A stretch of 64,000 bases of DNA from a virus (Duplodnaviria > Heunggongvirae > Uroviricota > Caudoviricetes), in the IMG/VR virus record IMGVR_UViG_2568526312_000010; one strand, written 5' to 3'. Shown in pieces: positions 33,001-42,000 of this stretch (positions are counted from its first letter, which is position 1; each line of letters starts with the position of its first letter). The position numbers are program-made.

Positions 33001-36000
33001 TTGCCATAAGCCTTATCCGCCCGCACCATTAACCGTTACTGTACACGCATCAGAGGTAATGCTCTGCGGCTGTTCTGCAGAATCCGTTACCTCGCAGGTA
33101 TAAGCCCCCTTATCACCTGACTGCGTATTGGCTTTACTGAAAGTGTCAGTAGTCTGTCCCTCTACCGGCTGACCATCCTTCTTCCAGGCGTGTTTATAAG
33201 GCGGCGTTCCCCCGTTGACACTGACTGACATTGTCAGCAGCGCACCGGTATTCACGGTAAGTGTCTTCTCCAGATTTTTCACAAACGCCAGCGGTACCAC
33301 ATAGGACACCGGTTTACCCTTCAGGCGAAGTGAAAACGTTGCAGCCACCACGCCGTTGGTACCGGATGACCAGGTGTGCTGACGCACTTCCGCCAGGAAC
33401 TTAAAGCCCTTACCGGACGGAAACTGCACCTTAAACGCATACACCGTGTCATTGTCATAGGCATCACGCAGGGCGTTCTGGGCCTGATTCAGATAAAAAT
33501 TACCCGACATGGAAATCTCGGACGACGCCCCCAGACCGTTGATGTTCTCCTGCTCTGTGGAGCAGAGCGTGGTCACATCAATATCCTGTTTCTGACCGGC
33601 GGTGAACTGGACTTCCTTGATGGTGCAGTCCAGGCGCAGATATTCCGCCTTCTCCATGGTTTCAGCAGTCGCCGGGGCAGATGAAATCATCACCTGCGTC
33701 AGCTGTGAACGTTCATACAAAGCAGACATTCTGCCTCCTGATAATAAAAAACCCGCACGCGGCGGGTTATGGGTTCTGTTGAAAAAATTACACCGTGACC
33801 TGAAACTCCAGGGTTGCACGGTAACAGCGGTTTTCCGGAATATAGTCCTGCATTTCACTGACGGATCCCGGGGCCAGCAGCATTATGGCTTCACGGGCGT
33901 CCTGACGTATCTGACGCGCCTGCGTCACAGTCCCGGCATAAACGTCTATCTGCACCGACACTGAGGACTCCGCCTGCCCGCCCATCACGTCCGCCGACAC
34001 CGATGAAATCAGGCTGAAAACCACCCACGGAAGCGCCACCGACGGCCTGCCATCCAGCAGGGGGACCACATACGGGTACACCTGCCCGCCGGCAAGATGC
34101 GCCAGATGAGGATACAAATCCGCCTCCGTCATCGTCTCAGTACCTCATCAATGGCCCGGTTCATCCGCGCAATCGCCACCTGTGCCGCCTGTTCACTGCG
34201 CACATCAAATGCCGGGCGCACAAACGGGTGCGGTGGCATATTCACGGTCCCCATTTCCACAAACCGCCAGTAGAAAGCATTGCGCGGGTTATCCGCCTTC
34301 ATGGTGTTATCGCTGTTACCGGTGTCCGGATTAACACCCCGGATATGCACACCGGATTCCATCCCGCCATCGCGGGAGCACCGGGAAAGGACCACCACAT
34401 TGCGGCGCAGTTTTCCCCTGCGTACCGGTGCCCGTGACACCACTTCTTCTTTCAGCACATTCGCACCCGCACGGGTTGCCTCACGCAGCACCCGGTTATT
34501 TTCCGCACCACTCAGAAGCTGCAAATCGCGGCTGATGTCCTCCAGCCCCGAAAAATCCAGCAGGGTTTCGATCATTTTTCCCCTCCCAGCCGACAGAGAA
34601 TTTCCAGACGCCCGCCGGTTGCATCCGGAACCGGGACCCCGACGACATTCAGGACATGGTCACGCCAGGGACCACTCAGCACATGAAGTCGTGACGCCGC
34701 CGTGATTTCCCGACCAGACTGACCGCGTACCCAGATGCGGATTTCCGCCTGCGCCATTTCCGCACCGGACTGCATCCGCTCCCGGCTGCTCCTGCCCCGG
34801 ATATCCGCATGAATTTTCCCGCATGACACCCATTCTTCCGTCATTTCTCCGGCAGCATTACGGGTTAACACCGGGTTCAGAACACTGATCATCTGTGTCA
34901 GACGACCTGCAGATATTGCCATTCCCCCTCCTCATAACACCGTCGGACAACGCAAATCGTAAATCAGCACGGAAACAGAAAACGGCAGTTCCCCCTGCAC
35001 GAGGTCTTCCCGCTCAGCAAGATCCGGATTCCGGTACAGCATCCCGGTCAGTCGCATGGCAGCCCCCTTCATCCGGGTTAATGCCTCACCAGGGATCAGC
35101 TCACCGTCCTCACTAATCACTTTATCCCGGCTGCCCTGGATGTAGGCCAGCAGCACGGCGGTAGCCTGACGAACCTTGTCCATCAGCATCTCATCATCCG
35201 CGTCATGGTCAACACGCAGATGTGCCTTGATTTCTTCCAGTGTCAGTAATGCTGTCACTTTCCACCTCTTGCATCCCGCCCACGTTTTGCAGCCAGAGTC
35301 CAGCCTGATGAATGAGCTTCTCCGGGCTTATCACCGGTCATACTGTTGCAGTGCCACAACGAGCCCCCCACGTCACCGTATCGCCGGGGTGGTAAGTTTC
35401 GCCGATTCTGAACACACCACGGTAGAGCATCACCGGCAGGGAAAATGTTTTTTCCGTACGCTGGCCACTGCTCTGCCGGACCACCACAGAGAACGACCGT
35501 TCACCCGTCATGCTGACGTCAATATCCGCCACCCCGTCAACCAGGCATTCCCATCCCCGCATCCCGTACGTTTTTTCATACGCCCGCCAGAGTCCACCCT
35601 GGTGTGTGGCATACGAGCCCCGGGGAAAGGATTTTTGATCGTCAATGGCGGGGAGTATTTCCAGTGCCGTGGCATCACGCCCGTCCTGCGGAGCCGGCAG
35701 GGCACTCACCGCCTCCAGAACCGCCTTCTGCAGAACATCCGGATCGTAGTCACGACCATCACGCGGAACAGGAATATGGCTTACCGCCTCCTTCACCATC
35801 TGTTCAAGCATCGGATGCACATCATCCGGAGTGATACTTTTACCGTCTGCCGGTACCGGTATTTTCGCGACCGCATCATTCACCGCCTTCTGCAGAACAT
35901 CCGGATCGTAGTCACGACCATCACGCGGAACAGGAATATGGCTTACCGCCTCCTTCACCATCTGTTCAAGCATCGGATGCACATCATCCGGAGTGATACT

Positions 36001-39000: not shown

Positions 39001-42000
39001 GGACATGATGCAGACGACTGTCATCCGGATACTGACGACGGGCCACTTCCAGGGCTTCAGATCGGACGCCTTTAGCCGCAGCCAGCGATTTGGCAAAGCG
39101 GGCGAAGCCAATCCCCTTATCCAGTTTCTGCTCCACACGGATCACCGGCGCAGAAGCCACCGCGGCCACATTCCCGTTACCGGCCTGTTTCACCGGCTGC
39201 GCCGTGGCGGCCTTACCGGCTTCCAGTTCACGCAGGCGCTTCAGGTGCGCATCCACCTGACGGATTTCCGCTGCGGTGTTGTCGTAATGCTCTTCCTCCT
39301 CCACATCCAGCGTGCGCCCTTCCTCTGCGGCTTTGGTCATGACCTCCTCAAGGGAGGCTGCCAGCGCTGCACGCTTGTTTTCAAAACTTTTAATCTGTTC
39401 GCCAATATTCATTATGGTCTTTTCCTTATGAAAAACGGTTGTTGACTGTGCCGCAGCGCCGGCAGAAGATGCGATTTTCACCACCGGTTTCCGGTTGCCG
39501 GACGCGGCAGAAAACGGGCGGTCGTAAGATTTAATGGTCCGGATGGTGCATTCCGCATTCGCGGGCATGGTGACGGCAGACACCTCCATCAGTTCCCAGC
39601 GCAGAAAATGCAGTCCGCCTCCGTCCAGAAAGGTGTATTCATGGGGACGGAAGCCCACGGACAGCCCCCTGACCAGCCCGGTCTTAATGGCCGCCCAGAC
39701 CTCATCCAGCCGGGCAGCCAGTTGCGACGGCATATCCGGTACGGGCTTCACCAGTGTTGCCGTGATTTCCAGCCCTTCGCTGACCCGGCGCACCGTACAC
39801 TGCCCCACCGGGCGGGAATGGTCATGCTGCCAGAGAAACGGGATCGCACTGCCAAACTCCGCGCCCTCCGGCTCCAGGATGTCACCATCCCGATCCGGAG
39901 AAGGCGTTGACGCAATCCCGGTGATCACCCGTTCATCCTCACTGAAGGATTTCACCGTCAGCAGGGAACAGGCCCGTTTAAGAGTCACATCAGCCTCCTG
40001 AAAATAAAAAAACCGCCGCAGCGGTTCATGATGGTTACAGTGTGAACAGGGTTATATGAAAAAAACCGCATATTCTTTCTTTTTCGGTTCCGGGTTAAGG
40101 GACATCAGGGAGACCGCATTGAACAGCGCCATCAGCGGGTCAATTTTTCCCCGTCCACTGGCCTGTTTGGTGATAAGAATGGCGTTACCTTTAGGCTCCA
40201 CCCGGGCATTGCCGACACACCAGGCCATCAGGGGCTGGTCACCATGCACCAGCACCCCTTCAGCCAGTTTGCGCTCGGTGGTTTTAATGGCCCCGCCCAG
40301 TTTCCAGCCCTGGCTTATCCCCACCACAATTCCGTCGGGGATCCCGGCTTCCGCCAGTGAATCCAGAATCTGCCCCACCCCTGACGGGTCAATACCGATA
40401 TGGTCCAGTAACTCAGCCTCATGAATGCGACGCACATATTCCGCCACTTCCGCCGTGTCATCCCCGACACGCCGGACAATGGTCATATCTCCACAGGCAA
40501 CAAGATCCTGAAACCGGGACGCCTCGCTCTTCCGTCGGACCACCGCGGTTTCATGCGCCCAGGCATGGCCCCAGCCCAGCCATTCGCGGGTTTCCCTGTC
40601 ACGGCCAATCACGTACATTCCCAGCAGATCATCCAGGCCCCCGCCGTCAATCCCCACCGTCACCACATCAGCGCGCTGCAGGATATCGTCCAGGCTGACG
40701 CGCCTGCCCTGCTGCTCCCAGAAATCCGCACCCGCCCAGCGGTCAGAACGCAGGGCAAGACCAATTTCCACATTGGCATGTTTTGACATGAAGCCACGAA
40801 ATGCTTCCTCACCAGCCTCCCGGGCTTTACGGTACTCCCGGTACAGAAAAGCCTCATCCACCGAATAACCGAGATTCGGGTTAACCATGGCGAGGTTTTC
40901 CATCAGCAGGTGAGCCCCGCTTTCCACCATTTCAGGAGGATGCTCAAAAATCACCGGCAGAAAGTGCGGATCATGAATTTTGCCGTCACGGACATCCCGG
41001 GCGTACTGCAGTTTCTGTCTGAACACCCCGGCTGGCGGCTCATTCGACTGGGTGGTCGTATACACCACAAACCCTTCCGGGCGGGAGGCAAGGCCGCCTA
41101 TGGCTTCACGTAACATGTCCTCCGCTTTGTACTGCTTGCCAAATAACCACAGTTCATCAATCAGCGTCCCCACGGACTTGATACCGGATACCGTATTCGG
41201 ATCGGCAGCCACCACCTTCAGGGTGGTGTCCGTCACCCTGTGGGTGATGGTCCGGATATGTGTCTGCACCTGACAGAGGTCATCCAGATCATCGTCCCGT
41301 CGTACCATATCCCTGGCAGGGTTGAAGGCGTTGGCCGCCACCTCCACGGTCGGGGCCAGAATGGTGTAGCCCGCCGCCTGCCGCCAGTTCAGTAACAGCG
41401 CCGTCATCATGATCCCGGCAGCCAGCGTGGACTTGCTGTTTTTCTTGGGGATAAGGATAAAAACTTCCTTGATATGGCGTACACCGGTCTGCGCATCGTA
41501 GGAGCCAAACAGGGCCGCCACCAGGTCAAACACCCACTGTGCGCAGGACTCCCCGAACGTCGGGCTGCCCGGTGCATCCACAATCCGCAGTTGTTTAAAA
41601 ATCGCCAGGGCATGTGCGGCCTGCTCCGGATAAATCGGAGCCGGAATAATCGACAGCCCCTTTTTCAGGCGCTCTGCCCAGTCCGGGCAGGCCGTGCTCC
41701 ACACAGGTATCATCCGTTGCCCTCATTATCATTATTCACCACCAGGCGGGGTGGTGGTGGCACCGCAAAACGGTTAGCCGCTTTTTTCGCCGCGTCACCT
41801 TTTGCCGATTTTTTACCGGCATCCCCTTTTTTGTGGTGCGTGAACTGCGCCAGCTTATAAGCCGCATCCAGCGCCAGCCTGGGGTCGGTATTAATGTTCT
41901 CCACCAGAAGACGCCCCATCGCTTTCACCGGATCGGGAAGACCGTCCTCCATATACTCAATACCAGGAGATATCACCACGGGCGGTGGCATCTCCGGATT

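Follow-up and report, generated by a model that had tools for sequence, protein, structure and literature searches.

A portal reading frame of an Escherichia coli O157:H7 prophage as a probable poly-G fusion of two adjacent head genes, portal and X

The solved portal proteins of the HK97 family, such as HK97 gp3 (Protein Data Bank, PDB, entry 8cez), the gp1 of entry 9lbn, and the RcGTA portal (6tba), have 393 to 431 residues, and their genes precede those of the protease and capsid. In HK97, SPP1, and P22, the portal C termini form a crown that faces the capsid interior. A different arrangement is found in phages BP-4795, FSL SP-016, PAJU2, and RHph_X2_26, in which the portal gene comes after the protease and capsid and overlaps a separate downstream gene, here called X. 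We analyzed IMG/VR record IMGVR_UViG_2568526312_000010, a stretch of 64,000 nucleotides (the window) assigned to the Caudoviricetes, in which an open reading frame (ORF) on the minus strand (35338-37839; 2,502 bp) encodes a portal-like protein of 833 aa. This locus shares its module order and its portal and X families with those four phages but is fused by one additional G and truncated in X by one missing G; compared with the HK97 family, its portal lies after the protease/capsid and is ca. 410 residues longer. The initial annotation, made from the sequence alone, had described a portal gene with a C-terminal extension of tandem repeats in a non-canonical gene order. Very probably, the 833-aa ORF arose by the joining of two neighboring head genes in a lambdoid (Pankowvirus/BP-4795-like) prophage carried by E. 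coli O157:H7.

The portal-like domain was confirmed. Pfam Phage_portal (PF04860) matched residues 54 to 382 with 272.5 bits (cutoff, 39.1), covering model positions 2 to 321 of 321, a full-length match above the curated threshold that places the ORF in the HK97 family of portals, and TIGR01537 (portal_HK97) scored 349.4 bits (cutoff, 112) on a 95%-identical relative (P0006). In alignments with the three solved HK97-type portals (9lbn, 8cez, and 6tba), residues 1 to ca. 420 were matched and the alignment stopped there, leaving ca. 410 to 450 residues beyond any solved portal. The family has proteins of ca. 390 to 460 aa with the crown at the end, and the 833-aa ORF exceeds these limits because it reads through into gene X. 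The extra length proposed at the outset is there, although it corresponds to a neighboring gene read through by an extra G and not to an evolved domain of the portal, and the suggestion that a second protein had been fused to the portal was correct in spirit.

The portal gene proper, delimited by the Phage_portal match and by alignment of the junction with two-gene relatives, spans 36474-37839, and X spans 35255-36477 (both on the minus strand), with its own ATG at 36477 (residue 455 of the fused ORF), an ancestral length of 407 aa, and a frame that in the window ends early at 35338. In the junction alignment, a single G in a poly-G tract (36489-36494, minus strand) separated the alleles with one ORF from those with two: the window, 2851, and YYZ-2008 carry GTTCAGGGGGGATACTG and have one ORF, versus GTTCAGGGGGATACTG in the relatives with a 454-aa portal and a separate X. 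In the form with five Gs (G5; GTTCAGGGGGATACTGAGAAAATGACG), the portal ends in AMFRGILRK and its stop overlaps the ATG of X (MTERELS), while the form with six (G6), present in the window, 2851, and YYZ-2008, reads through as AMFRGDTEKMTERELS. With a G5 tract, the portal of the window would have 454 aa, the same C terminus, and a TGA stop overlapping the ATG of X. The extra G sits 20 nucleotides (nt) before the ancestral portal stop codon. In distant enterobacterial relatives, the portal ends in AKAM(L/I)RG(L/F)L(T/I)K plus stop in the G5 frame, with AGA GGA codons and no G-run; therefore, the two-gene form came first and G6 is the derived one. In the G6 frame, this original C-terminal motif of the portal is missing. 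By this reconstruction, the ancestral layout was a 454-aa portal whose stop overlapped (ATGA) the start of a 407-aa X; one extra G in the G5 tract shifted the portal frame into that of X, and close to the 3' end a further slip, from G7 to G6, cost X its last 28 codons.

Both tract states are frequent among relatives, with G5 in 22 and G6 in 15 of 37 E. coli-type sequences. Among the 60 phage records listed, a span of G6 length appeared only in 2851, YYZ-2008, and three vB_EcoS partial genomes, while in 53 the match was 1 nt shorter than the query and was taken as G5, the annotated ones showing two features. Phage 1717 was considered as a fused case and ruled out, as its junction span of 185 nt corresponds to two genes. 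G6 was found on at least five flank haplotypes, and one G5 and one G6 locus (L021 and L009, respectively) had no differences over 700 nt of flank, a single pair with a tract of only 5 to 6 nt. On the portal side, the G6 alleles share a common haplotype, with a mean distance of 0.018 versus 0.092 among G5 alleles. From these distances, a few origins of G6 spread by recombination seem to fit better than a rapid switch.

The second slip lies in a poly-G tract near the 3' end of X (35364-35369, minus strand), where the window has GTGGGGGGCTCG (G6) and phages 2851 and YYZ-2008, which encode proteins of 859 and 861 aa, have GTGGGGGGGCTCG (G7). It leads to a premature stop at 35338-35340; when the missing G is put back, the ORF encodes an 861-aa protein whose stop overlaps the start of the adaptor gene. 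The NCBI Prokaryotic Genome Annotation Pipeline (PGAP) already has 35255-37839 in RefSeq as "phage portal protein, frameshifted," a pseudogene span, and reports the same frameshift in strain F7508. Neither of the two poly-G slips had been mentioned in the initial annotation. The truncation recurs in three other loci (L003, L027, and L052) and the exact 833-aa protein was found on 398 contigs, so we regard it as a genuine allele rather than an error of sequencing. The identical 2,502-bp gene (100% identity), both G6 tracts included, was present in several independent complete O157:H7 genomes.

The repeats described previously belong entirely to X. Tandem Repeats Finder placed at 35720-36312 (minus strand) an array of period 162 bp with 97% matches, a score of 1053, and no indels, and with 3.7 copies, practically the 3.6 of the initial annotation. 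It is in frame, with 54-aa units beginning at residues 510, 564, 618, and 672, each composed of two half-units, and encodes eight helix-loop half-units in total. The spacing of their loops (e.g., IPVPRDGR and IPVPADGK) alternates between 25 and 29 aa, and the same alternation was found throughout the family; therefore, this is an old two-helix repeat that was recently amplified in near-identical copies in E. coli. The comparison of copy number among relatives that had been proposed as a check revealed variation from 1.7 to 6.7, as the distances between the two tracts were 801, 963, 1,125, 1,288, and 1,611 nt (1.7, 2.7, 3.7, 4.7, and 6.7 copies, respectively), and full-length fused proteins in the protein database had three to nine half-units. 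Weak matches of the repeat region to TetR_C_35, DUF4244, and FliG_N were dismissed, being below threshold and within helical repeats.

Beyond E. coli, X is a large family of mostly stand-alone proteins. A search of 1.84 billion representative proteins (50% identity) with residues 421 to 862 of the 95%-identical relative gave 5,548 matches at E values of ≤1e-3, 617 of them at ≤1e-30. The best 150 of these 5,548 were mostly stand-alone proteins of 250 to 500 aa, and a portal domain was present in 1 of 30 sampled family members. X was a separate gene in ca. 90 metagenomic viral loci, in most Shiga toxin (Stx) phages, and in every distant relative examined, and the G5 relatives combine the 454-aa portal with a separate X of 245 to 569 aa. 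In Salmonella phage FSL SP-016, for instance, the gene of the 451-aa portal (SP016_00160) and the next one, which encodes a 347-aa X homolog (SP016_00155), overlap by 4 nt, and the two-gene layout was also found in Rhizobium phage RHph_X2_26, Pseudomonas phage PAJU2 (ORF006 and ORF007), BP-4795 (ORF58 and ORF59; 454 and 461 aa), and Lys8385Vzw (454 and 245 aa). In a set of 54 more divergent loci (X identity of 25 to 65%), the ORF just upstream of X was a Phage_portal protein in 35 of the 37 tested. Profile searches recovered the portal-X-adaptor placement in the loci (L006 to L142) whose flank reaches those neighbors, and in the window, once the frame is corrected, X likewise stands directly after the PF04860 portal and before a gp6-like head-tail adaptor (34932-35258, minus strand; Pfam Phage_connect_1, phrog_40).

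X matched no curated family in Pfam or NCBIfam, and the scan against NCBIfam gave no match. In PHROGs, it falls into phrog_1289, labeled "portal protein," and phrog_16748, and stand-alone X proteins carry the name "phage portal protein" at NCBI, one cluster at 90% identity comprising 1,947 sequences. This naming is most simply explained by annotation transfer from the fused allele. A partial member of the fused portal-X cluster (P0297) is named "plasmid partitioning protein ParA, partial" at NCBI, which is probably another annotation error, and a precomputed PF28083 label on some fused proteins was inconsistent and absent from the local Pfam. A literature search on portal extensions, BP-4795, the virion proteins of PAJU2, 2851, and collagen-like genes after portals found no description of X; the paper citing 9LBN deals with tail tubes. 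A second portal-X fusion was found in a distant lineage (P0210), a 1,237-aa protein with ca. 25 helix-loop units. Its junction is in frame without a homopolymer, the protein was recovered in identical form on contigs of two different samples, and the neighboring genes look intact.

An AlphaFold2 model of a natural 299-aa X variant, built from a 75-sequence alignment, reached a mean predicted local distance difference test (pLDDT) score of 86. It comprises a helix at residues 3 to 50, then four helices of 13 to 17 residues separated by 12-residue loops (pLDDT of ca. 70 to 80), and a beta domain at ca. 165 to 290 (pLDDT of 97 to 98). X of the window has the predicted architecture of the family, i.e., a long N-terminal helix, P.P..G loops 25 or 29 aa apart, and a C-terminal beta domain of ca. 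130 aa (35255-35658, minus strand), the last 28 codons of which are out of frame here. No other part of X comes near the conservation of this domain, which has near-invariant alignment columns and is maintained across phages of Enterobacteria, Pseudomonas, and Rhizobium. It resembles two carbohydrate-binding modules (CBMs) of the CBM5/12 type: Foldseek against the PDB retrieved a tail fiber (Agrobacterium phage 7-7-1), the Milano receptor-binding complex, and chitin deacetylases that carry two CBM12 domains in tandem, the fold matches solved chitin-binding domains, and against BFVD Foldseek retrieved phage proteins with collagen repeats, ChiC binding domains, and tail-fiber annotations. At the sequence level, Pfam CBM_5_12 (PF02839) scored 19.1 to 24.7 bits on the family, below the gathering threshold of 26.2, with matches at E values of ≤1e-3 in 12 of 30 members (best, 6e-7), and sequence and profile searches of the PDB gave only weak matches to chitin-binding domains and designed helical repeats. 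The family is acidic (median isoelectric point, 4.9), its rod ranges from ca. 2 to 25 units, and collagen-like G-X-Y runs occur at the end of 34 of 135 members. Pfam Phage_Mu_F (PF04233) had no match in X and 30 relatives.

The head genes around the fusion follow an order that the initial annotation had called non-canonical. Its observation that a fused protease/capsid gene lies between the terminase and the portal held up: the ORF at 38051-39988 (645 aa, minus strand) contains Peptidase_S78 at residues 48 to 152 (35.1 bits; cutoff, 21) and Phage_capsid at residues 386 to 635 (52.7 bits; cutoff, 24.2) and matches phrog_617 over its full length. Both domains thus lie in one ORF between TerL and the portal, as in the fusion module of PAJU2 (ORF003), and such a fusion is also annotated in BP-4795 (ORF56). 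However, the order is no oddity. Large terminase subunit (TerL), protease/capsid, portal, X, adaptor, and head closure always followed one another among the 80 IMG/VR loci of E. coli/Salmonella type, as far as the flank of each locus reached; the E. coli-type loci included both one-ORF and two-ORF forms, and the divergent loci had the same module order with the protease and capsid either fused or split. Since it is conserved across loci, it represents the fixed layout of a large module family, which is already visible in annotated phages. Other lesions were found in several loci (L038 to L040, L050, L052, L009, and L023), with TerL in three ORFs, the portal in two or three, or X truncated; judged from their reading frames, the head module is often decaying in E. 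coli genomes.

How X might act is suggested by its strict synteny with the portal gene, the overlap of its start with the portal stop, and two independent fusions to the portal C terminus, of which the in-frame one in a distant lineage suggests that X is tethered to the portal C-terminal tail. The 806 contigs with the fused-intact E. coli allele and its presence in the genome of phage 2851 agree with such tethering. Translational coupling of the two genes would keep X at a portal-like dosage; the N-terminal helix would sit at the flexible C-terminal tail of the portal, followed by an acidic helix-loop rod bearing the domain that resembles two CBM5/12 modules, and the protein could be a tether for portal incorporation, scaffold-like, or an internal or ejected protein, in the procapsid or capsid. 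A location inside the head at the portal vertex is favored because portal C termini face the capsid interior. We hold this interior role, with ca. one X per portal, as a tentative reading that falls somewhat short of probable. Little speaks against the genetic part of our account. G6 alleles are common and spread over five or more flank haplotypes, so the fusion is not a lesion confined to this locus, and phages may tolerate it or even profit from it. Phage 2851, which carries it, is reported to be infectious. No virion proteomics or structure of X was found in the literature. The resemblance of the C-terminal domain to CBMs and tail-fiber tips, the collagen-like ends, the variable rod, and the low isoelectric point would fit an external fiber at least as well. 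An external neck, collar, or head fiber with a carbohydrate-binding tip, in which case the portal fusions would be nonfunctional accidents, is the main alternative, possible but rather doubtful: the fold matches, collagen-like tails, and length variability agree with it, but conservation of the protein is highest at the presumed tip, the opposite of what is found in receptor-binding tips, both fusions join the N terminus of X to a portal C terminus that is interior in solved portals, and neither PDB sequence and profile searches nor fold searches detected homology to fibritin or the neck passage structure. With the same degree of doubt, the interior reading could be extended to a widespread, unrecognized class of portal-tethered head proteins (>5,500 clusters at 50% identity) specific to modules with the protease/capsid before the portal, with the rod inside the head of such siphoviruses at the portal crown and, in E. 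coli, a poly-G toggle between free and covalently attached X. If true, the CBM-tipped appendage could serve in portal incorporation, DNA retention or ejection, or cell wall binding after ejection.

The remaining explanations concern the fused allele itself. That the long ORF or its array is an artefact of sequencing or assembly can be practically discarded: such errors are typical of homopolymers and 162-bp repeats, and in many drafts the assembly breaks in the array and yields "partial" proteins of 600 to 660 aa, but the identical sequence with both G6 tracts in many independent complete genomes, the exact protein on the 398 contigs, and the same PGAP frameshift in F7508 speak against it, which also removes the concern about assembly raised with the initial annotation. 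A functional and selected fusion, with X as a true C-terminal domain of the portal in E. coli phages, similar to the P22 portal barrel or to an internal core, and the one- and two-gene forms interchangeable, is a more serious, if unlikely, possibility. The fused-intact 859-aa E. coli allele was found on 806 contigs as well as in the genome of phage 2851, fused alleles occur on several haplotypes, with 1.7 to 6.7 repeat copies and, among complete phage genomes, in 2851 and YYZ-2008, and the fusion in the distant lineage is clean and in frame. However, the copy in the window is also truncated and lies in a prophage lacking the tail-tip gene J, that of a sequence type 131 (ST131) strain belongs to a prophage interrupted by numerous insertion sequences, two separate genes are retained by most Stx phages, the G6 frame no longer encodes the ancestral C-terminal motif of the portal, and the common portal-side haplotype of G6 points to few origins and recombination rather than repeated selection. 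Least credible after the artefact is a programmed switch, by phase variation of the DNA or ribosomal frameshifting, through which each allele would make portal and fusion in a set ratio. The coexistence of both tract states, even with identical 700-nt flanks in the L021/L009 pair, could be read in that sense, as could the rare codons after the tract in the G5 frame (AGG GGG ATA .. AGA AAA TGA) and the A-run before the stop. Nevertheless, five or six Gs are short for a contingency locus, the G6 alleles are of one portal-side haplotype, and no slippery heptamer common to relatives was found at the junction, distant relatives having AGA GGA .. AAA TGA with no homopolymer; programmed frameshifting at this point was rejected for lack of a conserved slippery site. 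The fusion of two head genes by an extra G is the reading that we retain for the 833-aa ORF.

Two further changes affect the portal half in other E. coli alleles. One 959-aa portal-X protein (P0001) has an exact tandem duplication of ca. 100 aa in the portal crown/linker (LQTLIESIELLL...ASAGKT twice), and seven alleles (P0008, P0010, P0012 to P0014, P0027, and P0031) are without the same 24 residues of the portal domain (residues 310 to 333, QQYYSQCLQTLIESIELLLDEAL). This deletion splits the Pfam portal match; its position between two EALE motifs suggests a recurrent or widely spread slip.

As for the prophage that carries the locus, the gene matched the long-tailed Stx1a/Stx2c phages 2851, YYZ-2008, 1717, and BP-4795 (90 to 99% identity) and was found in 1,246 of 5,426 complete E. 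coli genomes. In strain F7508, the window corresponds to a prophage of ca. 49 kb located between potB and potC, which spans 14500-63500 of the window. It lacks stx, and L and K (C40 peptidase) are the last genes of its tail module, which has an ant/arc insert; J and the tail-fiber genes are absent, with nleL, espN, espK, nleB/gogB remnants, and IS2 in their place. With J gone and the portal gene frameshifted in RefSeq, the prophage is, by its gene content, defective and decaying. A fused and otherwise intact 861-aa allele was found in E. coli ST131 strain 4224 (L146; NZ_CP103592.1), in a prophage that retains J but is broken by IS66-like, IS3-like, IS1, and IS21-like elements, one of them between the head-closure and gp10-like genes.

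All the genes of the module in the window are on the minus strand. TerL (40052-41713) was identified by Pfam TerL_ATPase and TerL_nuclease, and the small subunit, TerS (41710-42273), by Terminase_2 and phrog_641, in agreement with its RefSeq name "terminase small subunit." Between the protease-capsid fusion and the portal there is a conserved 73-aa ORF (37785-38006), which is also present in RefSeq, BP-4795 (ORF57), YYZ-2008, and FSL SP-016, overlaps the portal start by 55 nt, and had no family match in the search of family models. Past the adaptor follow a head-closure protein, a gp10-like protein, a tail-completion protein, the major tail protein, the tail chaperones, and the tape measure. 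The longest ORF of the major tail protein (33013-33858) has 281 aa with a GTG start, while RefSeq places the start at 33729 (238 aa); its C-terminal part is an Ig-like domain (Pfam Ig_2 and I-set), as in many siphovirus tail tube proteins. The chaperone pair, G-like (32633-33007) and T-like (32328-32609), has the layout of lambda G/GT, which is made by programmed -1 frameshift. At the other end of the window (1-9650), by roxA, there is a second, unrelated mobile element with an HK97-type portal, a prohead protease, and a major capsid protein, followed by PerC, SSB, a DUF927 primase-like protein, an Icd-like protein, a helix-turn-helix regulator, and a tyrosine integrase, and which, by this gene content, may resemble a capsid-forming phage-inducible chromosomal island (cf-PICI) of the EDL933 type.

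By itself, the finding has little importance: RefSeq already flags this portal gene as frameshifted, the O157:H7 prophage is defective, and the gene order is typical of its phage group. The misnaming of X, in turn, can mislead calls of prophage completeness and portal phylogenies. X is conserved, strictly linked to the portal, and has a confidently predicted structure, and the fused and unfused alleles (2851 versus BP-4795) offer a genetic handle.

Compared with known systems, the module resembles those of the HK97 type in the HNH endonuclease, TerS, TerL, and gp6/gp7-like connectors around the portal. SPP1 gp7 and Mu gpF are likewise encoded directly downstream of the portal, and X would share with them, by analogy, an expected portal-like dosage and a proposed head role associated with the portal, but the likeness is one of synteny only, with no sequence similarity and an entirely different architecture. 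The barrel of P22 gp1 is a helical C-terminal extension of the portal into the capsid, much as the fused form would place X; however, that barrel is part of one gene, whereas most relatives encode X separately, with a beta domain at its end, and no homology between the two was detected. The CBM5/12 domains of Serratia ChiB, Streptomyces ChiC, and a Vibrio chitin deacetylase with two tandem CBM12 domains resemble the C-terminal domain of X, which has subthreshold Pfam scores (19 to 24.7 bits versus 26.2) and no enzyme attached; the domain may bind glycans or could equally serve protein-protein contacts. Finally, T4 fibritin (wac) and the lactococcal neck passage structure would be analogous in their segmented helical rod, globular C-terminal domain, collagen-like stretches in some, and gene position near the neck genes, with no sequence or fold match to X. 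Unlike in these proteins, the conserved end of X is the C-terminal one, and its fusions to the portal argue against a purely external position.

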